This document shows positions 24,716-37,837 of a stretch of DNA of 64,000 nt, one piece after another; position 1 is the stretch's first letter, and every line of letters begins with the position of its first letter. The DNA comes from Escherichia coli (lineage in GTDB: Bacteria > Pseudomonadota > Gammaproteobacteria > Enterobacterales > Enterobacteriaceae): the NCBI RefSeq assembly GCF_044324785.1, contig NZ_CP172127.1; one strand, given 5' to 3'. The notes beneath the pieces were generated by a model, which saw nothing but the letters and a program-made list of their open reading frames with translations, had not been told where the DNA came from and ran no database searches. The position numbers and the translations under genes are program-made.

Positions 24716-25284
24716 AAACGGGGGCTGAAGCCATCCGGGCACTGGCCACACAGCTCCCGGCGTTTCGTCAGAAACTGAGCGACGGCTGGTATCAGGTACG
24801 GATTGCCGGGCGGGACGTCAGCACGTCCGGGTTAACGGCGCAGTTACATGAGACTCTGCCTGATGGCGCTGTGATTCATATTGTTCCCAGAGTCGCCGGG
24901 GCCAAGTCAGGTGGCGTATTCCAGATTGTCCTGGGGGCTGCCGCCATTGCCGGATCATTCTTTACCGCCGGAGCCACCCTTGCAGCATGGGGGGCAGCCA
25001 TTGGGGCCGGTGGTATGACCGGCATCCTGTTTTCTCTCGGTGCCAGTATGGTGCTCGGTGGTGTGGCGCAGATGCTGGCACCGAAAGCCAGAACTCCCCG
25101 TACACAGACAACGGATAACGGTAAGCAGAACACCTATTTCTCCTCACTGGATAACATGGTTGCCCAGGGCAATGTTCTGCCTGTTCTGTACGGGGAAATG
25201 CGCGTGGGGTCACGCGTGGTTTCTCAGGAGATCAGCACGGCAGACGAAGGGGACGGTGGTCAGGTTGTGGTGATTGGTCGCTGA
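24613..25284 (+). CDS. I: Tail tip assembly protein gpI
   Basis: 223 aa MAATHTLPLASPGMARICLYGDLQRFGRR...; Gly/Ala-rich hydrophobic C-half. Confidence 0.85.
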   Translation: MAATHTLPLASPGMARICLYGDLQRFGRRIDLRVKTGAEAIRALATQLPAFRQKLSDGWYQVRIAGRDVSTSGLTAQLHETLPDGAVIHIVPRVAGAKSGGVFQIVLGAAAIAGSFFTAGATLAAWGAAIGAGGMTGILFSLGASMVLGGVAQMLAPKARTPRTQTTDNGKQNTYFSSLDNMVAQGNVLPVLYGEMRVGSRVVSQEISTADEGDGGQVVVIGR

Positions 25285-25344
25285 TGCAAAATGTTTTATG
25301 TGAAACCGCCTGCGGGCGGTTTTGTCGTTTATGGAGCGTGAGGA

Positions 25345-28300
25345 ATGGGTAAAGGAAGCAGTAAGGGGCATACCCCGCGCGAAGCGAAGGACAACCTGAA
25401 GTCCACGCAGTTGCTGAGTGTGATTGATGCCATCAGTGAAGGGCCGATTGAAGGTCCGGTGGATGGATTAAAAAGCGTGCTGCTGAACAGTACGCCGGTG
25501 CTGGACAGTGATGGGAATACCAACATCGCCGGTGTCACGGTGGTGTTCCGGGCTGGTGAGCAGGAGCAGACTCCGCCGGAGGGATTTGAATCCTCCGGCT
25601 CCGAGACGGTGTTGGGTACGGAAGTGAAATACGACACGCCGATCACCCGCGCCATCACGTCGGCAAACATCGACCGACTGCGCTTTACCTTCGGTGTGCA
25701 GGCACTGGTGGAAACCACCTCAAAGGGGGACCGGAATCCGTCGGAAGTTCGCCTGCTGGTTCAGATACAGCGTAATGGTGGCTGGGTGACGGAAAAAGAC
25801 ATCACCATTAAGGGCAAAACCACCTCGCAGTATCTGGCCTCGGTGGTGGTGGATAACCTGCCGCCGCGCCCGTTTAATATCCGGATGCGCAGAATGACGC
25901 CGGACAGCACCACAGACCAGCTGCAGAACAAAACGCTCTGGTCGTCATACACCGAAATCATCGATGTGAAACAGTGCTACCCGAACACGGCACTGGTCGG
26001 CGTGCAGGTGGACTCGGAACAGTTCGGCAGCCAGCAGGTGAGCCGTAATTATCATCTTCGCGGGCGCATTCTGCAGGTGCCGTCGAACTATAACCCGCAG
26101 ACGCGGCAATACAGCGGTATCTGGGACGGAACGTTTAAGCCAGCATACAGCAACAACATGGCCTGGTGTCTGTGGGATATGCTGACCCATCCGCGCTACG
26201 GCATGGGGAAGCGTCTCGGTGCGGCGGATGTGGACAAATGGGCGCTGTATGTCATCGGCCAGAATTGCGACCAGTCGGTGCCGGATGGCTTTGGTGGCAC
26301 GGAGCCGCGCATCACCTGTAATGCCTGGCTGACCACACAGCGCAAGGCGTGGGATGTTCTCAGTGATTTCTGCTCGGCGATGCGCTGTATGCCGGTATGG
26401 AACGGGCAGACGCTGACGTTCGTGCAGGACCGACCGTCGGATAAGGTGTGGACCTATAACTGCAGTAATGTGGTGATGCCGGATGATGGCGCGCCGTTCC
26501 GCTACAGCTTCAGTGCCCTGAAGGACCGTCATAATGCCGTTGAGGTGAACTGGATTGACCCGGATAACGGCTGGGAGACGGCGACAGAGCTTGTTGAAGA
26601 TACGCAGGCCATTCTCCGTTACGGTCGTAACGTCACGAAGATGGATGCCTTTGGCTGTACCAGCCGGGGGCAGGCGCACCGCGCCGGGCTGTGGTTGATT
26701 AAAACGGAACTACTGGAAACGCAGACCGTGGACTTCAGCGTGGGGGCGGAAGGGCTTCGCCATGTGCCGGGCGATGTCATTGAAATCTGCGATGATGACT
26801 ATGCGGGGATCAGCACCGGCGGGCGCGTGCTGGCGGTGAACAGCCAGACCCGGACGCTGACGCTCGACCGTGAAATCACGCTGCCATCCTCCGGTACCAC
26901 GCTGATAAGCCTGGTTGACGGAAGTGGCAATCCGGTCAGCGTGGAGGTCCAGTCCGTCACCGACGGCGTGAAGGTAAAAGTGAGCCGTGTTCCTGACGGC
27001 GTTGCCGGATACAGCGTATGGGGGCTGAAGCTGCCGACGCTGCGCCAGCGCCTGTTCCGCTGCGTGAGTATCCGTGAGAACGACGACGGCACGTATGCCA
27101 TCACCGCCGTGCAGCATGTACCGGAAAAAGAAGCTATCGTGGATAACGGGGCGCACTTTGACGGCGACCAGAGCGGCACGGTGAATGGTGTCACGCCGCC
27201 AGCAGTGCAGCACCTGACTGCCGAAGTCACCGCAGACAGCGGGGAGTATCAGGTACTGGCCCGCTGGGACACGCCGAAGGTGGTGAAGGGCGTGAGTTTC
27301 ATGCTTCGCCTGACCGTAACAGCGGATGACGGCAGTGAGCGGCTGGTCAGCACGGCCCGGACGACGGAAACCACTTACCGCTTCACACAACTGGCTCTGG
27401 GGAACTACAGGCTGACAGTCCGGGCAGTAAATGCGTGGGGGCAGCAGGGCGATCCGGCGTCGGTATCGTTCCGGATTGCCGCACCGGCAGCGCCGTCGCG
27501 GATTGAGCTGACGCCGGGCTATTTTCAGATAACCGCCACGCCGCATCTTGCGGTTTATGATCCGACGGTACAGTTTGAGTTCTGGTTCTCGGAAAAGCGG
27601 ATTGCGGATATCAGGCAGGTTGAAACCAGCGCGCGTTATCTTGGTACGGCACTGTACTGGATAGCCGCCAGTATCAATATCAAACCGGGCCATGATTATT
27701 ATTTTTACGTTCGCAGTGTGAACACCGTTGGCAAATCGGCATTCGTGGAGGCTGTCGGTCAGCCGAGTGATGATGCATCAGGCTATCTGGATTTTTTCAA
27801 AGGCGAGATAGGGAAAACCCATCTGGCTCAGGAGCTGTGGACGCAGATTGATAACGGTCAGCTTGCGCCTGACCTGACTGAAATCAGGACGTCCATAACG
27901 GATGTCAGCAATGAAATAACACAGACCGTCAATAAGAAACTGGAAGACCAGAGTGCAGCGATCCAGCAGATACAGAAGGTTCAGGTTGATACAAATAATA
28001 ACCTGAACAGCATGTGGGCAGTGAAGCTGCAGCAGATGCAGGACGGACGCCTTTATATTGCGGGTATCGGTGCCGGTATTGAGAACACCCCTGACGGCAT
28101 GCAGAGTCAGGTGCTGCTGGCGGCGGACAGGATTGCGATGATTAATCCTGCAAATGGCAACACAAAACCGATGTTTGTTGGTCAGGGTGATCAGATATTC
28201 ATGAATGACGTGTTCCTGAAACGCCTGACGGCTCCCACCATTACCAGCGGTGGAAATCCGCCGGCATTTTCCCTGACACCGGACGGAAAGCTGACCGCTA

Positions 28301-28842
28301 AAAATGCGGATATCAGTGGCAGTGTGAATGCGAACGCCGGGACGCTCAACAATGTCACGGTAAATGAAAACTGTACGATTAAGGGCATGCTGGAGGCGAC
28401 TCAGGTCAGAGGTGACTTCGTTAAAGCTGTATCCAAATCATTCCCGAAACAGGCTGGTACGTGGGGTAATACGGAAACACCAAACGGGACGGTTACAGTC
28501 ACCATCAGCGATGATCATAACTTTGACCGTCAAATCATTATTCCGCCCATTATCTTTAACGGAATAGCGTATAGCGATCCGGGAAGTGGTAATAACCCGG
28601 GAGGTACAAGATACACGGGTTATGGTTTTGAAGTTCGCAAAAACGGCGTATTAATCGCATCCAGAGAAACTAAAGGGGCCATTCCCGGTAGTTACAGTGC
28701 AGTTATTGATATGCCGAGTGGCAGGGGAAGCGTCACTCTGGAGTTTAAGATTTTCCAGAAAGGCAATCAGGGGGCAGGCAATATCACCGACTGTACGGTG
28801 ATTGTGACCAAAAAAGCCGCTTCCGGCATCAGTATTCGTTGA
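25345..28842 (+). CDS. J: Central tail fiber / host specificity protein gpJ
   Basis: 1165-aa ORF; N-terminal and central regions lambda J-like; C-terminal region appears divergent. Confidence 0.95.
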
Positions 28843-28863
28843 AATATTTATAACCCCAATAAA

Positions 28864-28889
28864 GGGCGTCAGGAATGACGCCTTTTTTA
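28864..28889 (+). terminator. Intrinsic terminator after J
   Basis: Hairpin GGGCGTCA-GGAA-TGACGCCT followed by T-run. Confidence 0.5.
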
Positions 28890-28912
28890 TTGCAGAAAAG
28901 CGAGAGGTAATT

Positions 28913-29512
28913 ATGCGTAAAGTTTGTGCAGCAATTTTGTCCGCAGCCATTTGTCTGGCCGTATCCGGTGCGCCTGCATGGGCGTCTGAACATCAGTCCA
29001 CGCTGAGCGCGGGGTATCTTCATGCCTCGACGAACGTCCCCGGCAGTGATGATCTGAACGGGATTAACGTGAAATACCGTTATGAGTTTACGGACACACT
29101 GGGGCTGGTGACGTCATTCAGCTATGCAGGAGACAAGAATCGCCAGCTGACCCGTTACAGCGATACCCGCTGGCATGAAGATTCCGTTCGTAACCGCTGG
29201 TTCAGCGTAATGGCGGGGCCGTCTGTGCGCGTGAATGAATGGTTCAGCGCGTATGCGATGGCGGGTGTGGCTTACAGCCGTGTGTCGACTTTCTCCGGGG
29301 ATTATCTTCGCGTAACTGACAACAAGGGGAAAAAGCACGATGTGCTGACCGGAAGTGATGACGGTCGCCACAGCAACACGTCTCTGGCGTGGGGGGCTGG
29401 CGTGCAGTTTAACCCGACCGAATCCGTGGCCATTGATATTGCTTATGAAGGCTCCGGCAGTGGTGACTGGCGCACTGACGGTTTCATCGTGGGTGTCGGT
29501 TATAAATTCTGA
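28913..29512 (+). CDS. lom: Lom/Ail/PagC-family outer-membrane beta-barrel protein
   Basis: 199 aa with signal peptide; conserved C-terminus ...DIAYEGSGSGDWRTDGFIVGVGYKF. Confidence 0.9.
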   Translation: MRKVCAAILSAAICLAVSGAPAWASEHQSTLSAGYLHASTNVPGSDDLNGINVKYRYEFTDTLGLVTSFSYAGDKNRQLTRYSDTRWHEDSVRNRWFSVMAGPSVRVNEWFSAYAMAGVAYSRVSTFSGDYLRVTDNKGKKHDVLTGSDDGRHSNTSLAWGAGVQFNPTESVAIDIAYEGSGSGDWRTDGFIVGVGYKF

Positions 29513-29538
29513 TTAGCCAGGTAACACAGTGTTATGAC

Positions 29539-29566
29539 AGCCCGCCGGTTCAGGTGGGCTTTTTTG
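29539..29566 (+). terminator. Possible intrinsic terminator after lom
   Basis: Imperfect hairpin AGCCCGCC...GGTGGGCT followed by TTTTTTG. Confidence 0.4.
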
Positions 29567-29576
29567 TGGGGTGAAT

Positions 29577-32405
29577 ATGGCAGTAAAGATTTCAGGTGTA
29601 CTGAAAGACGGCACAGGAAAACCGGTACAGAACTGCACAATCCAGCTGAAAGCAAAACGTAACAGCACCACGGTGGTGGTAAACACGCTGGCCTCAGAAA
29701 ATCCGGATGAAGCCGGGCGTTACAGCATGGACGTTGAGTACGGGCAGTACAGCGTTATTCTGTTGGTGGAGGGATTCCCGCCGTCACATGCCGGGACCAT
29801 CACCGTGTATGAAGATTCCCGACCCGGTACGCTGAATGATTTTCTCGGTGCCATGACGGAGGATGATGCCCGTCCTGAGGCACTGCGCCGTTTTGAACTG
29901 ATGGTGGAAGAGGTGGCGCGTAACGCGTCCGCGGTGGCACAGAACACGGCAGCCGCGAAGAAGTCAGCCAGCGATGCCGGCACATCAGCACGTGAGGCGG
30001 CAACCCATGCGACTGATGCTGCAGGCTCAGCACGCGCAGCCAGCACGTCAGCCGGACAGGCCGCGTCGTCGGCTCAGTCAGCATCTTCCAGCGCAGGAAC
30101 GGCATCAACAAAGGCCAGTGAAGCATCGAAAAGTGCTGCTGCTGCAGAGTCCTCAAAAAGCGCGGCAGCTACCAGTGCCGCTGCGGCGAAAACGTCAGAA
30201 ACGAATGCGGCAGCGTCACAACAATCAGCAGCCACTTCTGCATCCGCCGCGACCACGAAGGCGTCAGAAGCTGCCACCTCAGCCCGGGATGCGGCGGCCT
30301 CAAAAGAGGCGGCAAAATCATCAGAAACGAGCGCAGCCTCGAGCGCCAGTAGTGCAGCCTCCTCGGCAACAGCGGCAGGAAATTCCGCGAAGGCGGCAAA
30401 AACGTCCGAGACGAACGCTAAGTCTTCTGAGACGGCAGCAGCACAGAGTGCCTCCGCAGCAGCAGACTCAAAAACAGCGGCTGCCTCATCTGCCAGCGCC
30501 GCGTCAACAAATGCCGGGCAGGCCTCAGCCAGTGCCACCGCCGCCGGAAAATCGGCAGAAAGTGCTGCATCGTCCGCTTCAACAGCCACAACGAAGGCTG
30601 GCGAAGCCGCTGTACAGGCCAGCGCAGCAGCGAGGTCTGCTTCCGCAGCGAAGACATCCGAGACGAACGCGAAAGCGTCGGAAACCAGCGCAGAATCCTC
30701 AAAAACGGCTGCCGCATCGTCCGCCAGTTCGGCGGCGTCATCGGCATCATCTGCGTCTGCTTCAAAAGATGAGGCGACCAGACAAGCGTCCGCAGCGAAG
30801 GGCAGCGCCACGACAGCATCCACGAAGGCGACAGAGGCAGCTGGCAGTGCGACGGCGGCAGCACAGAGCAAAAGTACGGCGGAATCCGCGGCAACGCGCG
30901 CCGAGACAGCGGCAAAACGGGCAGAGGATATTGCATCCGCCGTGGCGCTTGAGGATGCGAGCACGACGAAAAAGGGGATAGTACAGCTCAGCAGTGCGAC
31001 CAACAGCACTTCCGAGTCACAGGCGGCAACGCCAAAAGCCGTTAAGGCCGCGTATGACCTGGCTAACGGGAAATACACCGCACAGGACGCTACGACAGCA
31101 CAAAAAGGAATTGTCCAGCTCAGTAGTGCAACCAACAGCACATCTGAAACGCTTGCTGCGACACCGAAAGCAGTGAAAGCAGCTAATGACAATGCGAATG
31201 GTCGGGTACCTTCTGCCCGTAAGGTGAATGGTAAGGCGCTTTCAGCGGATATAACACTGACGCCGAAAGATATTGGTACGCTTAACTCAACAACAATGTC
31301 ATTCAGCGGTGGTACTGGTTGGTTCAAATTAGCAACGGTAACCATGCCACAGGCGAGTTCTGTTGTTTCAATTACGTTGATTGGTGGCGCTGGATTTAAC
31401 GTGGGGTCACCTCAACAGGCAGGTATATCTGAACTTGTTTTACGTGCAGGTAATGGTAATCCGAAGGGGATTACTGGTGCTTTATGGCAGCGCACATCGA
31501 CAGGGTTTACAAATTTTGCCTGGGTCAATACATCTGGTGATACTTACGATATTTACGTTGCAATCGGAAATTATGCGACTGGTGTAAATATTCAATGGGA
31601 TTATACCAGTAATGCCAGCGTGACGATTCATACGTCACCAGCATATTCTGCTAATAAGCCGGAAGGGTTAACGGACGGTACAGTTTATTCACTCTATACG
31701 CCATCAGAGCAGTTTTATCCGCCTGGCGCACCAATCCCGTGGCCATCAGATACCGTTCCGTCTGGCTATGCCCTGATGCAGGGGCAGACTTTTGACAAAT
31801 CTGCATACCCGAAACTTGCAGCCGCTTATCCGTCAGGCGTGATCCCTGATATGCGTGGCTGGACGATTAAGGGCAAACCTGCCAGTGGTCGGGCCGTATT
31901 GTCTCAGGAACAGGACGGCATTAAATCGCATACCCACAGCGCCAGCGCATCCAGTACGGATTTGGGGACGAAAACCACATCGTCGTTTGATTACGGCACT
32001 AAATCCACGAATAACACTGGTGCGCATACCCATAGTTTAAGTGGCAGCACGAATGCAGCTGGTAATCACAGCCATAGAGATGGCCGTCGATTTAACCCCA
32101 GTGTTTTTAAAGATACTTATCAATATGGTTATACAAGCTCAGGTCAAAATACCTGGGGTGTACAAGGCTCAGTAGGTATGTCTACGGGGTGGTTAGCGAA
32201 TACCAGTACAGATGGTAATCATAGCCATTCACTGTCCGGCACAGCAGCATCTGCAGGTGCACACGCGCATACTGTCGGTATTGGTGCTCATACGCACTCC
32301 GTTGCGATTGGTTCACATGGACACACCATCACCGTTAACGCTGCTGGTAACGCGGAAAACACCGTCAAAAACATCGCATTTAACTATATTGTGAGGCTTG
32401 CATAA
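29577..32405 (+). CDS. stf: Side tail fiber protein Stf
   Basis: ORF 29571-32405; start at [12 protein letters not shown]; Ala/Ser-rich repeat block, duplicated phage tail-fiber repeat ([15 protein letters not shown]...[10 protein letters not shown]), His-rich HxH C-terminal motifs. Confidence 0.9.
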
Positions 32406-32980
32406 TGGCATTCAGAATGAGTGAACAACCACGGACCATAAAAATTTATAATCTGCTGGCCGGAACTAATGAATTTATTGGTGAAGGTGACGCATATATT
32501 CCGCCTCATACAGGTCTGCCAGCAAACAGTACCGATATTGCACCACCAGATATTCCTGCTGGCTTTGTGGCTGTTTTCAACAGTGATAAGGCATCGTGGC
32601 ATCTCGTTGAAGACCATCGGGGTAAAACGGTTTATGACGTAGCGTCAGGGGACGCGTTATTTATTTCTGAACTCGGTCCGTTACCGGAAAATGTTACCTG
32701 GTTATCGCCGGAAGGGGAGTTTCAGAAGTGGAACGGCACAGCCTGGGTGAAAGATGCAGAAGCAGAAAAACTGTTCCGGATCCGAGAGGCGGAAGAAACA
32801 AAAAACAGCCTGATGCAGGTAGCCAGTGAGCATATTGCGCCACTTCAGGATGCTGTAGATCTGGAAATCGCAACGGAGGAAGAAACCTCATTGCTGGAAG
32901 CCTGGAAAAAGTATCGGGTGTTGCTGAACCGTGTTGATACGTCAACTGCACAGGATATTGAATGGCCAGCACTGCCGTAG
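32405..32980 (+). CDS. tfa: Tail fiber assembly protein Tfa
   Basis: 191 aa [24 protein letters not shown]...; ATG overlaps stf stop (TAATG). Confidence 0.9.
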
Positions 32981-33077
32981 GGTAAAACATATAAATTCTA
33001 TAATTAGATGTATCTTTCCATTTACGGCAAGGAAGGGGGCTTGGAAGACGTAAAGCATCTCACACCGAGATTATTTT

Positions 33078-33668
33078 TTATATGTCAGGTGTCTGAAGTT
33101 TTGCTTTGGCTCTTAAAATGGTTTGCCGCGAGGTTTTGAATTCCCGGGCAATGGCACTTATACTTACACCTGACTTAATTCGTTCGAATACCACCTGTTT
33201 CTGTTCTTCATTTAACACAGGTGGTCGACCAAAACGTTTCCCTGCGCCGCGGGCTCTTACTATCCCGGAATGAGTGCGTTCAAGTAAAAGGTCTCGTTCA
33301 AATTCAGCGACTGCTGAAATTACGTGCATCATCATTTTTCCTGTTGGACTGGTCAGGTCAATGCCCCCCAATGCTAAGCAATGCACTCTGATACCTGTTT
33401 CGGTCAGTTGTTCCACTGTTTTCCTGATATCCATTGCATTACAACCAAGGCGATCCAGTTTTGTCACAATCAATTGATCACCACATTTCAGGCGAGCAAG
33501 CAACCGGTTAAAACCAGGACGCTCACTGGTTGCTGCTGAGCCGCTAATGTGTTCTTCGATTATTTGCTGAGGTTTGATTTTAAAACCTGCACTTTCGATT
33601 TCCCGGCGTTGATTTTCGATGGTCTGATCCAGCGTTGATATCCGACAGTAAGCAAAAATTCGAGACAT
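33078..33668 (-). CDS. pin: Pin/Gin/Hin-family serine DNA invertase
   Basis: 196 aa [20 protein letters not shown]... with catalytic Ser in the N-terminal motif and C-terminal HTH. Confidence 0.9.
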
Positions 33669-33984
33669 AGTGAGACTCTATACGAAATTGGTGTTCATAT
33701 CATAATGCATCTCAGAAAATAATTTTGATTATTTTTGTGCATATTTGTATGTACACGTTCGAAAATAAACGAATGCGTATGCAACCCCGTAATTTTGGTG
33801 AGACCCAAAATCGATTTTGTGAAAAATGGCTTTAACTCGGTTTGTTTTTCGAGTTCCGGGCGGACTCAAGGAAGAAGAATAGTGTTGCGTGTTATTTTAA
33901 CCAGATTTCAAGTTGTTTGGTCGTGGAAAAGTGGAGCAAAATGTTGTTAAAGTGGAAAAATGATAAAAAAGTAAGTTTATTATA

Positions 33985-34218
33985 TTACATTTTACCATTT
34001 AAATTTTGGTTGTCTTTAAGAACTGATATCGCTGTTTGTAATAATTCTTTGTTATCCAGCCATGATTTTTTCTTTATGTTTCCTTCAATGTAATCAAGCA
34101 ATGTTCTGGTATTGATAGGTCTTCCCTGTTTTGCTACTTCCACTACAGCATCCCCTAGGATAATTCTTACTTCAGGAAGCTGCGCAGGGAACCACTTTAG
34201 GGTGTCTTTTGATTTCAT
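33985..34218 (-). CDS. ydfK: YdfK/YnaE-family prophage protein
   Basis: ORF 33985-34251; start at MKSKDTLKWFPAQLPEV (77 aa). Confidence 0.75.
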   Translation of the reverse strand: MKSKDTLKWFPAQLPEVRIILGDAVVEVAKQGRPINTRTLLDYIEGNIKKKSWLDNKELLQTAISVLKDNQNLNGKM

Positions 34219-35003
34219 GAAGATATTCCTTAAAATATTATTGAGTTTCATTGCGATATTGTATGTCTGATTCAGGATATGTTGACTTATACATCGGTTT
34301 TGTCTGGGTTATTGGATATGCCAATCCCTAATTTTATTAGGGCATGACTAAAAATGCTGAATATGATAAGGAGAGAAGTGATTATCAGTATGCTGTTCAT
34401 ATAGCCTCGAATTAGTAATGTGTTATATATGATATAGTTGACAATTTTTATCTTGGGTGTTCTTAAAGTTCGTAGATAAACATTGTCGTTTCAGGTATAC
34501 AGGAATGCTAACAGGTGGCAGCAAAAATCAGGCGGTTTATGGCGCAAGCTGAAGCGGCAACTGCAAACTATCTTATGCAGAGACTCTACACGGATTGGGT
34601 TTAAAAGTATACATAGATAACAGTTTTTATCTGAAAAAGAAAAATATCAAGGTGATATAGCCTATATGCCTTTGATGCGGAGGAATGAATGTGATGGGAG
34701 TGATGTATCTGAATAGTTGAAAAACCGCAGACACGCCTTATGCAAGAACGTGCTGCGGTTGGCTGGTAAATTTTTCGATAGTGTGAGTATTGAATGATTT
34801 CCAGCCGTTCTTGATTTTACGCATAAATCCATGAAAAAACTACTTATCTGTTGGGGAGTTTTTTTGGGGCATATATGGGACAGAAATAGGCCCCAGATAG
34901 ACACTGAGATCGAACTTAGGATGCTTTTTAAAAAATGCAACTATCTGAAAAAACCTAGAAAACGCCAAGGAAACCACAGGATGGGAAAAAACACCTGTGA
35001 ATT

Positions 35004-36287
35004 ATGGATTTCCAGTTATATTCGCTCGGCGCAGCGTTAGTGTTTCATGAAATATTTTTTCCTGAATCATCAACGGCAATGGCGTTAATTCTGGCAATGG
35101 GAACCTACGGTGCAGGTTATGTGGCACGTATTGTCGGAGCATTTATTTTCGGCAAAATGGGCGACAGAATCGGGCGTAAAAAAGTGCTCTTTATTACCAT
35201 CACCATGATGGGGATCTGTACCACCTTAATTGGTGTGCTGCCGACCTATGCACAAATTGGTGTGTTTGCGCCAATTTTGCTGGTGACGCTGCGTATTATT
35301 CAGGGGCTGGGGGCAGGCGCGGAAATTTCCGGTGCCGGCACGATGCTGGCGGAATATGCACCAAAAGGTAAGCGCGGAATTATCTCCTCATTTGTTGCTA
35401 TGGGGACTAACTGCGGAACCTTGAGCGCAACGGCAATCTGGGCCTTTATGTTCTTCATTCTCAGTAAAGAGGAACTGCTGGCGTGGGGATGGCGTATACC
35501 GTTCCTGGCGAGCGTTGTCGTGATGGTCTTTGCTATCTGGTTGCGTATGAATCTGAAAGAAAGCCCGGTCTTTGAGAAGGTTAACGACAGCAACCAACCG
35601 ACAGCAAAACCTGCACCTGCTGGTAGCATGTTCCAGAGCAAATCCTTCTGGCTGGCAACAGGGCTGCGTTTTGGTCAGGCGGGTAACTCAGGTTTAATTC
35701 AGACTTTCCTTGCAGGCTATTTAGTGCAGACGTTATTGTTTAACAAAGCAATTCCAACAGATGCATTGATGATCAGTTCGATTCTCGGCTTTATGACCAT
35801 TCCGTTCCTTGGTTGGTTATCCGATAAAATTGGTCGCCGGATCCCGTATATTATTATGAATACCTCCGCGATTGTGCTGGCATGGCCAATGCTTTCTATC
35901 ATCGTAGATAAAAGCTATGCCCCGAGCACCATTATGGTTGCACTGATTGTGATTCATAACTGTGCGGTGCTGGGATTATTTGCTCTGGAAAACATTACCA
36001 TGGCAGAAATGTTCGGCTGTAAAAACCGCTTTACCCGGATGGCTATTTCTAAAGAAATTGGTGGTCTTATCGCTTCCGGTTTTGGTCCTATCCTGGCGGG
36101 TATTTTCTGCACCATGACGGAATCCTGGTATCCGATCGCCATTATGATCATGGCATATTCAGTGATTGGTTTAATCTCTGCGCTGAAAATGCCAGAGGTG
36201 AAAGACCGTGATTTAAGTGCGCTGGAAGACGCTGCGGAAGATCAACCGCGTGTTGTAAGAGCTGCGCAACCTTCCAGAAGTCTGTAA
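35004..36287 (+). CDS. ydfJ: MFS transporter (metabolite:H+ symporter family), apparently lacking the normal N-terminus
   Basis: 427-aa ORF MDFQLYSLGAALVFHEIFFPESS...; aligns from the conserved WYDF motif onward of MHS transporters; in-frame stop immediately upstream. Confidence 0.85.
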   Translation: MDFQLYSLGAALVFHEIFFPESSTAMALILAMGTYGAGYVARIVGAFIFGKMGDRIGRKKVLFITITMMGICTTLIGVLPTYAQIGVFAPILLVTLRIIQGLGAGAEISGAGTMLAEYAPKGKRGIISSFVAMGTNCGTLSATAIWAFMFFILSKEELLAWGWRIPFLASVVVMVFAIWLRMNLKESPVFEKVNDSNQPTAKPAPAGSMFQSKSFWLATGLRFGQAGNSGLIQTFLAGYLVQTLLFNKAIPTDALMISSILGFMTIPFLGWLSDKIGRRIPYIIMNTSAIVLAWPMLSIIVDKSYAPSTIMVALIVIHNCAVLGLFALENITMAEMFGCKNRFTRMAISKEIGGLIASGFGPILAGIFCTMTESWYPIAIMIMAYSVIGLISALKMPEVKDRDLSALEDAAEDQPRVVRAAQPSRSL

Positions 36288-36376
36288 ATCCTCCATCCCT
36301 TCTCTTACCGGAGAGGGGATTTTTTATTCATATAACAAAACATGCAGCTTGCCATATTTAAATTTAAGGAATTGTT

Positions 36377-37837
36377 ATGGGAAATAATTTGTTATCAGCA
36401 AAAGCGACGCTCCCTGTTTATGATCGTAATAACCTGGCCCCAAGAATTGTTCATTTAGGCTTTGGTGCATTTCACCGTGCGCATCAGGGCGTGTATGCCG
36501 ATATTCTTGCTACGGAACATTTCAGTGACTGGGGATATTATGAGGTCAATTTAATCGGCGGCGAACAGCAAATTGCCGATTTACAACAGCAAGATAATCT
36601 TTATACCGTTGCGGAAATGTCGGCCGATGCGTGGACGGCTCGCGTCGTTGGCGTCGTTAAAAAAGCCTTGCACATACAAATAGATGGCTTAGAAACCGTG
36701 CTGGCCGCGATGTGTGAACCGCAAATCGCGATTGTCTCTCTGACAATCACCGAAAAAGGGTATTTCCACTCTCCGGCGACCGGACAGTTAATGCTCGATC
36801 ACCCGATGGTCGTTGCCGACGTACAAAATCCCCACCAGCCGAAAACTGCAACAGGGGTGATTGTCGAGGCGCTGGCTCGCCGTAAAGCGGCAGGACTTCC
36901 CGCATTTACCGTCATGTCATGTGACAACATGCCAGAAAACGGTCATGTTATGCGTGACGTTGTCACTTCCTACGCGCAAGCTGTTGATGTAAAACTGGCA
37001 CAATGGATCGAAGAAAACGTGACTTTCCCATCAACAATGGTGGACCGTATTGTGCCCGCAGTGACGGAGGATACGCTGGCGAAAATCGAACAACTTACCG
37101 GTGTGCGCGATCCTGCTGGCGTTGCCTGTGAACCTTTCCGCCAGTGGATAATAGAAGATAACTTTGTTGCCGGACGTCCGGAATGGGAAAAAGCGGGAGC
37201 CGAACTGGTTAGTGATGTGCTGCCTTATGAAGAGATGAAGTTGCGCATGCTCAACGGCAGTCATTCATTCCTGGCGTATCTGGGTTATCTTGCCGGATAT
37301 CAGCACATTAATGACTGCATGGAAGATGAACATTATCGTCATGCAGCGTATGCCTTGATGTTGCAAGAACAAGCGCCGACGTTGAAAGTGCAGGGCGTTG
37401 ATTTGCAAGATTACGCTAACCGATTAATTGAACGCTATAGCAACCCGGCGCTACGTCATCGAACCTGGCAGATTGCGATGGATGGCAGCCAGAAATTGCC
37501 ACAGCGGATGTTGGATTCTGTTCGCTGGCATCTGGCGCATGACAGCAAGTTCGATCTGCTGGCTCTGGGCGTCGCAGGTTGGATGCGTTATGTCGGTGGT
37601 GTTGATGAACAGGGAAATCCGATAGAAATCAGTGACCCACTGTTACCTGTTATTCAGAAGGCTGTACAAAGTAGTGCCGAAGGGAAAGCGCGCGTCCAGT
37701 CATTGCTGGCGATTAAGGCGATCTTTGGTGATGATTTGCCAGACAATAGCTTGTTTACTGCAAAAGTGACGGAAGCGTACTTGTCTTTATTAGCGCATGG
37801 TGCGAAAGCGACCGTGGCGAAATATTCCGTGAAGTAA
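36377..37837 (+). CDS. ydfI: Mannitol dehydrogenase-family oxidoreductase
   Basis: 486-aa ORF; N-terminal Rossmann GFGAFHRAH. Confidence 0.9.

Follow-up and report, generated by a model that had tools for sequence, protein, structure and literature searches.

Prophage genes pinQ and pinR of Escherichia coli as the probable surviving resolvase gene of a decayed Tn3-family transposon

Introduction

The Din invertases (PinE of e14, Gin of Mu, Cin of P1, and Hin of Salmonella) are small serine recombinases that pair a Resolvase domain with a helix-turn-helix at the C terminus, and they are encoded beside phage tail-fiber genes. Their hallmarks are sequence closeness to one another, two flanking 26-bp inverted crossover sites, duplicated fiber 3' ends, and a recombinational enhancer that depends on Fis and lies in the 5' part of the invertase gene. 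Escherichia coli K-12 additionally encodes PinQ in the Qin prophage (b1545) and PinR in Rac (b1374), both within the gene order tfa-pin-ydfK/ynaE-ynfT/ynaM at the prophage end. Here, we analyze an ortholog of these two genes, referred to as pin, in a 64,000-nucleotide stretch of E. coli DNA (contig NZ_CP172127.1 of assembly GCF_044324785.1), which we call the window. The original prediction, made from this sequence alone, described pin as a full-length serine invertase of the Pin family that lies directly after stf-tfa yet has no visible invertible partner. Our analysis indicates that pinQ and pinR are very probably the surviving tnpR of a decayed Tn3-family transposon, in which the arginine equivalent to R71 of Tn3 resolvase has become Cys76, and not the remnant of a tail-fiber switch.

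Two bodies of published work frame this proposal. In Tn3 resolvase, the R71A and R71K substitutions eliminate resolution in vivo, yield no recombination products in vitro, and slow strand cleavage by ~1000-fold (PMC2794168). For K-12 PinQ, Kirigo et al. (NAR 2025, PMC12529663) reported that overproduction lifts inversion of the e14 P segment from ~30% to 88%, giving rise to a chimeric StfE2 that blocks adsorption of phage T2. These effects require e14, stfP, and stfE, and deletion of pinQ sensitizes cells to T2 (PMC12529663). The gene itself is therefore known and very common in E. coli, and its action in trans has been published. The literature that we searched, with queries on the repeat sequence of the transposon and on pinR in combination with Tn3 or resolvase, contained no prior description of either the ancestry from a transposon or Cys76.

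Results and Discussion

The pin gene (33078-33668, minus strand) encodes a protein of 196 residues with the Pfam domains Resolvase (E 5e-36) and HTH_7 (E 9e-11). Its identity is 98% to K-12 PinQ and 99% to PinR, with differences at 2-4 residues. Identity of at least 98%, the presence of Cys76, and the tfa-pin-ydfK/ynaE synteny at a prophage end assign the locus to the PinQ/PinR ortholog group. A database search returned 120 closest homologs at 76-99% identity. The nearest relatives, at 82-83% protein and 82% DNA identity (P0015/L005), are TnpR resolvases adjoining 994-residue Tn3-family transposases, whereas the identity to PinE is 39%. The C-terminal DNA-binding region is likewise near that of the transposon TnpR and has few residues in common with PinE.

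Structural databases would place the protein differently at first sight, as its best match in the Protein Data Bank (PDB) is Gin. The scores qualify this match: against Gin, the window protein reaches 106 bits and a genuine TnpR 107 bits, compared with 312 bits for PinE. The gamma-delta/Tn3 resolvases (1GDT, 1ZR4, and 5CY1) belong to the same fold family, with E-values near 1e-22, but are distant in sequence (84 bits); the window locus differs from them further in having Cys at the R71 position and no functional res. An NCBIfam scan of the protein gave only sub-threshold matches (Mpi, XisF, and CcrB) and was uninformative. Relative to the Din invertases, the window gene lacks the sequence closeness, the flanking 26-bp inverted sites, the duplicated fiber 3' ends, and the catalytic Arg. 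The original prediction was thus right to place an intact serine recombinase open reading frame (ORF) directly after stf-tfa, but the Pin-family label does not survive the comparison of 39% identity to PinE with 82-83% to TnpR. The label "Pin / DNA invertase from lambdoid prophage Rac" has already been copied onto transposon resolvases in other genera.

Four of the relatives that retain the arginine were sampled (P0015, P0073, P0101, and P0085; 77-83% identical), and their locations include chromosomes as well as plasmids, of IncF and other types. All four are divergent from the gene for a 994-residue Tn3-family transposase across a 160-bp spacer, with tnpA truncated or missing in some copies. 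The transposase (DDE_Tnp_Tn3) scores 1193 bits against the NCBIfam model transpos_Tn3 (NF033527), for which the cut-off is 500. The TnpRs of these elements, from IncF and other Enterobacterales plasmids and from Shewanella baltica, have the same length of 196 residues and the same domain layout as the window protein. In a single Shewanella baltica genome, the transposon is present three times in different surroundings, each copy ending in perfect 38-bp terminal repeats, GGGGTCCGCTTGGAAAACGGAAAATATCCCACGCTAAG; two of the three copies are bordered by 5-bp target duplications. Given these perfect repeats and target duplications, the related element is a working minimal transposon of ~3.8 kb with the organization tnpA-res-tnpR. 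In E. coli, related transposons are found at 204 places on plasmids.

When four transposon copies were compared, three pairs of inverted half-sites of the TGWCCGAAA type emerged in the res region. We read these pairs as res site I (N8 spacer), site II (N14 spacer), and site III, an assignment that rests on the conserved half-sites. A scan of the transposon recovered site I with 0 mismatches and site II with 1 mismatch. The transposon half-sites, TGTCCGAAA, resemble the gamma-delta half-site CGTCCGAAA.

The similarity between the window and this transposon continues past both ends of the pin ORF. Window positions 33039-33748 match the transposon (L005) at 82% identity over 712 bp (blastn), a match that extends 39 bp beyond the pin stop codon into the terminal repeat and 80 bp upstream into res. 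Directly past the stop codon lies a degenerate 38-bp terminal inverted repeat (33035-33069, minus strand), in which 27 of 38 bases match GGGGTCCGCTTGGAAAACGGAAAATATCCCACGCTAAG; it is the best local score in the window, at 15 against a background of 13. The downstream similarity ends at the outer GGGG of the transposon, which is also the point of divergence among independent copies of the element. On the far side of that boundary, the similarity of tfa to phage lambda, which has no pin, stops at ~32967-32970 (query bases 1-563/566).

Upstream of pin, the match spans ~80-100 bp of the tnpA-tnpR spacer before ydfK is reached, and it contains candidate relics of the res subsites, all on the minus strand. 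The putative site III (33679-33697) reads TGAACACCAATTTCGTATA where the transposon has TGTACACCCATTTCGTACA, with 3 mismatches, the subsite being assigned from its half-sites. The putative site II (33710-33741) has the form TGCACAAAA-N14-TTTCTGAGA and carries 4 mismatches to the half-site consensus, compared with 1 in the transposon. Of site I, the presumed crossover site, the right and tnpR-proximal half-site would lie at 33756-33764, reading TTTCGAACG against TTTCGGACA in the transposon. Identity falls from ~80% to <40% at ~33765-33770, which corresponds to the center of site I. The left half of site I and tnpA are absent from the window, and the window scan gave no full site I. Compared with the transposon tnpR loci, the window copy is therefore missing the terminal repeat on the left and tnpA, along with the left half of site I.

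Two conclusions about direction and mechanism follow from this architecture. As the prophage holds decayed versions of a terminal repeat and res, which are functional only in the transposon, descent runs from the transposon to the prophage. The breakpoint near the center of site I suggests a resolvase-mediated loss, and tnpA may have been removed by recombination at res site I. A separate tnpR copy without tnpA was observed on a microcin/colicin plasmid-like contig (L008:7836-8006). This copy parts from the transposon sequence within the left half of site I, where the relic also breaks off, and a different res-like left half-site is found there; the arrangement looks like a hybrid res arising from resolvase-mediated exchange.

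Alignments to Gin and gamma-delta resolvase showed that the catalytic motif LDRLGR (D67-R68-L-G-R71) ends in Cys, as LDRLGC, in the window protein and in both PinQ and PinR, the cysteine being encoded by a CGT to TGT change. By our own mapping, the equivalents of Y6, R8, S10, Q14, Q19, R45, D67, and R68 are kept. In window numbering, Y7, R9, S11, E39, D72, and R73 are present, and the resolvase set (Y6, R8, S10, D36, R68, and R71) is incomplete through Cys76 at R71. The arginine form is the rule among the relatives, with LDRLGR in 112 of the 120 closest homologs. The cysteine forms comprise the PinQ/PinR clusters (2148, 1066, 359, and 6 member sequences) and a diverged prophage lineage (P0009/L011; 374 members) that also adjoins tfa; phages Turner and Tritos carry LDRLGC as well.

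Proteins that bear Arg and yet reach 85-92% identity to the window protein are all clean mosaics, of transposon type in the N-terminal part and of PinQ type toward the C terminus. Because the Arg-bearing near relatives are all mosaics, Cys76 is a mark of the prophage lineage. In the recombinant alleles P0003, P0005, P0006, P0007, and P0008, the 5' part of pin, including codon 76, is of the transposon tnpR type, and Arg is restored. The DNA of one such E. coli locus (L012:5620-6700) displays the same exchange within prophage-type flanks, and these alleles show that gene conversion has occurred between plasmid transposons and prophage relics. At L012:6689-9714, from an E. coli with a mosaic Arg-type pin, the neighboring tfa is split by an IS66-family insertion. 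The original prediction had raised inactivating substitutions in pin as a point that would tell against it, and Cys76 at the R71-equivalent Arg is in part such a change.

The position of pin after stf-tfa resembles the layout of Mu, P1, and e14, and both its Pfam domains and its best PDB match look superficially like those of an invertase. The gene could accordingly be pictured as the orphan of an ancestral stf-tfa/tfa'-stf' invertible segment that was deleted, which we consider extremely improbable. Searches of the six frames of the 64-kb window by tblastn with tfa, the N- and C-terminal parts of stf, and pin returned self matches only, with zero second copies of the C-terminal 400 residues of stf. 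A blastn comparison of positions 25000-36500 against the window found zero inverted duplications. Both searches agree with the original prediction, which saw a single tfa and no inverted copy of tfa or of the stf 3' end around pin. A search for inverted and direct repeats around the gene yielded short pairs of low identity, the inverted ones spanning ≤28 nt with 70-80% complementarity, which we take as background.

Crossover sites are equally lacking in the window. A Din-type pattern, TTNTCNNAAACCNNGGTTTNNGANAA, was derived from the e14 P-segment sites and, as a positive control, recovers both of them with 1 mismatch each. In the 64 kb, the pattern has 0 matches at ≤3 mismatches; its best matches carry 5 mismatches and number 3, compared with 2.05 expected from shuffles. 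The e14 repeat quoted in the literature, TTGGTTTGGGAGAAGG, also has 0 matches at ≤3 mismatches in the window. The earlier remark that gix/hix-like sites are not obvious is borne out by these scans, whose best hits are at chance level. Cognate res-type sites of the form TGNCCGAAA-N4-16-TTTCGGNCA, sought across the whole window, gave nothing above the shuffled expectation.

Two candidates for a local switch were examined and set aside. An imperfect palindrome upstream of pin, ATTTTGGTGAGACCCAAAAT (33793-33812), is also kept in K-12 pinQ, L011, and L012. It was rejected as a crossover site, as it runs in the opposite polarity to the half-sites of gix/hix and falls beyond the stretch similar to the transposon. 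The extra 1.4 kb of phages Turner and Kati was rejected as a second fiber cassette, being an insertion beyond ydfK and not between tfa and pin.

The surroundings of pin argue against a lost switch as well. Right behind the pin stop codon lies the relic of a terminal repeat, and upstream of the gene stands res in place of a crossover site. In phage Tritos, pin and ydfK follow unrelated fiber genes and a 110-bp remnant of tfa. In BLAST surveys, Kirigo et al. detected inversions in e14 alone and in neither Qin nor Rac (PMC12529663). Nothing next to pin inverts. With neither a Din- nor a res-type crossover site, no partner site, and an impaired active site, pin is without a local substrate, and any activity it has must be in trans. 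The original prediction offered a degenerate switch with an orphaned pin as one explanation. The gene is orphaned and has no local switch, but its kinship to TnpR and the transposon relics around it show that it is not a Gin/Cin/Hin/Pin invertase that lost a tail-fiber segment. The other explanation on offer, action on sites elsewhere, fits both our finding that recombination must occur elsewhere and the published trans inversion of the e14 P segment by the K-12 ortholog (PMC12529663).

A gene without a local substrate might simply be a functionless hitchhiker, that is, a decaying transposon remnant kept by its linkage to ydfK and by the recent spread of prophage copies. The loss of the catalytic Arg, the decay of res, and the absence of tnpA are all compatible with this view. 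At least 80% of the relic occurs in 2750 of 5426 complete E. coli genomes, and 2480 of 2996 matching records are at least 99% identical, which is consistent with recent spread. Constraint has also relaxed several-fold. Pairwise ratios of nonsynonymous to synonymous divergence (dN/dS) are lowest among transposon copies (0.03-0.08), intermediate in comparisons of prophage with transposon (0.15-0.19), and reach 0.39 when the two Cys-type lineages of prophages are compared, which differ by a synonymous divergence (dS) of 0.22. On polarized branches, nonsynonymous and synonymous changes number 38:34 in the prophage and 29:60 in the transposon (Fisher p=0.011).

The same data nonetheless make a functionless hitchhiker unlikely. 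The prophage ratio is significantly below the neutral expectation of ~76% nonsynonymous changes (binomial p=2e-5), and both Cys lineages, despite a dS of ~0.22, keep the full 196-codon ORF with no stop codon or frameshift. In a spread sample, 27 of 27 near-full-length matches (≥95% of the query) are annotated as intact coding sequences, and both deletion and overexpression phenotypes have been published. Judged from these substitution patterns, the pin ORF is under relaxed but real purifying selection. Isolated or viable phages that carry pin include mEp460_ev081, 2H10, PhiR42_1, Turner, Tritos, and others, and in prophages and viable phages alike, ydfK and pin move together as a single module. 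The pin-ydfK pair is a mobile accessory block at the fiber/attachment-site end of lambdoid genomes, and it is not bound to a particular fiber.

If pin is maintained, one possibility is that PinQ is a fully competent invertase acting in trans, whose substrate is a Din-type segment in another prophage, such as the e14 P segment, where it would switch tail-fiber-like genes against phage adsorption. The 88% inversion on PinQ overproduction, the loss of the effects without e14, stfP, or stfE, and the T2 sensitivity of the pinQ deletion all speak for this possibility (PMC12529663). The window protein is only 2-4 residues away from K-12 PinQ and PinR, and its ORF shows some purifying selection. The Din sites and transposon site I are, moreover, both 26 bp long, and one e14 half-site has the block CGAAAA in common with site I, equally far from the center; PinQ may thus be able to cross-bind Din sites.

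Other observations make independent catalysis by PinQ doubtful, although it stays within the range of plausible outcomes. Cys76 occupies the position of an Arg whose mutation in Tn3 resolvase abolishes recombination in vivo (PMC2794168). In a pinE single mutant, the P segment is locked, which argues that chromosomal PinQ and PinR do not invert it on their own (PMC12529663). The main text of that study contains neither a catalytic-serine mutant nor an assay of purified PinQ (PMC12529663). The resulting 88:12 ratio would also be unlike the ~50:50 expected from a simple reversible invertase, which PinE approaches with 49% (PMC12529663). The DNA-binding region of PinQ resembles that of TnpR and shares few residues with PinE, and the window holds zero target sites. 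Given the locked pinE mutant, the absence of a catalytic mutant or purified assay from the main text, the 88:12 ratio, and the resolvase origin with Cys76, we hold direct catalysis by PinQ to be unproven. On the basis of Cys76 and the locked P segment in the pinE deletion, a weak or PinE-dependent effect on e14 is more likely than robust independent catalysis.

TnpR proteins of Tn3-type elements also act as repressors at res. The Cys76 protein might similarly serve as a catalysis-independent regulator, through autoregulation, through repression or competition at the res of incoming transposons, or by biasing PinE inversion. The TnpR-like character of its DNA-binding region would suit such a role. 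Tn3 resolvase mutants at R71 still bind and synapse DNA (PMC2794168), and both the pinE dependence and the skew to 88% would fit a modulator (PMC12529663). A preprint describes transcriptional effects of PinR. Related transposons co-occur in E. coli on plasmids, and the frequent transposon/PinQ mosaics indicate that the two meet in the same cells. The res sites of the protein itself are decayed, which counts against this role, and we regard the proposal as speculative and unlikely.

Taken with the evidence for a transposon origin, these considerations suggest the following history. In an ancestral phage of the lambdoid type, a ~3.8-kb transposon would have come to rest ~55 bp past the end of tfa. 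It would later have lost its transposase gene together with the outer half of site I, with the breakpoint suggesting a resolvase-mediated event. Still present in the window are the ORF for the resolvase, a degenerate terminal inverted repeat, the decayed putative res sites II and III, and one half of site I. In this prophage lineage, the catalytic Arg has also been replaced by Cys76. The ORF has nevertheless stayed intact, riding with ydfK through many lambdoid phages. As it is intact, under relaxed purifying selection, and carried with ydfK, some function in trans is likely.

Several points weigh against this account or parts of it. The terminal-repeat relic is weak alone (15 against 13), and it convinces only because of where it lies and because the tnpR match runs on into it. 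The res subsites and the breakpoint in site I are read from conserved half-sites. Transposition into the phage and the gain of an already truncated module by recombination both fit the data and are not distinguished here; a prophage with a complete transposon after tfa was not searched for. On the functional side, R71 mutants of Tn3 resolvase are described as "not inert" (PMC2794168). Kirigo et al. treat PinQ as an active invertase, and direct catalysis would mean that Cys76 is tolerated and that "attenuated" is the wrong word for the protein (PMC12529663).

The window contains a Qin-like lambdoid prophage inserted in ydfJ. Over 5.6 kb, the locus is 99.7-99.8% identical to E. coli IAI1 and other strains, and the IAI1 annotation agrees with our gene assignments. 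The lambda-like head and tail genes of the morphogenesis region are complete, with gpJ (25345-28842; 1165 residues), lom (28913-29512), and the side tail fiber gene stf (29571-32405, plus strand; 944 residues); K-12 Qin, by comparison, is truncated. The tail fiber assembly gene tfa (32405-32980, plus strand; 191 residues) follows, and the convergent pin lies 97 bp past its stop codon. Upstream of pin and in the same direction is the cold-shock protein gene ydfK (33985-34218/34251, minus strand), and ynfT comes after ydfK and before ydfJ. The coordinates of stf, tfa, pin, and ydfK come from the ORF list, and stf, tfa, and ydfK are supported by the IAI1 annotation; stf and tfa are context and not part of the relic. 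The prophage insertion leaves ydfJ truncated, without its N-terminus (35004-36287, plus strand), and ydfI lies beyond it. The integration site is that of K-12 Qin and is hence common to pinQ and the window gene.

Several further features of the region were recorded. Within stf, positions 30070-31350 form a long Ala/Ser/Lys/Glu-rich stretch of imperfect repeats spaced at multiples of 21 nt, including an 89-bp direct repeat (30970-31058 and 31102-31190) that is 74% identical. Long ORFs in other frames or on the opposite strand over these repeats (e.g., 30074-31345, minus strand, 423 residues) are probably artifacts of the repetitive composition. The Rfam family RF02111 ("IS009", a candidate E. 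coli small RNA family) has a full-length match at 32748-32946 (plus strand) with 227 bits against a gathering score of 117, wholly within the 3' part of the tfa coding sequence. Rfam gave no match in the pin-ydfK spacer, and a promoter and terminator scan returned only weak consensus matches and zero terminators. In the searches with tfa, the record MW057783.1, "Campylobacter phage CJLB-4" (48,361 bp), matched the tfa region at 94.7%; lambda records show this same identity, and the coordinates agree with those of lambda to within ~80 bp. It looks like a lambda genome under the name of a Campylobacter phage.

Conclusions

The gene examined here is E. coli prophage pinQ/pinR. It descends from a Tn3-family tnpR and survives as a relic that has neither tnpA nor a complete res nor the catalytic Arg. 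Its origin as a transposon resolvase explains the lack of an invertible partner, and the name "Pin / DNA invertase from lambdoid prophage Rac" misleads. PinQ and PinR might be domesticated, attenuated Tn3-family resolvases kept for a DNA-binding or synapsis role, for example in biasing PinE inversion or in repressing or competing at res, which we put forward tentatively and think rather unlikely. If they were binding or synapsis proteins and not invertases, the published "PinQ inversion" phenotype would be indirect. The recent model of recombinase-activated phage defense rests on PinQ as an active invertase, and Cys76, the resolvase ancestry, and the reported dependence on pinE make that claim directly testable.

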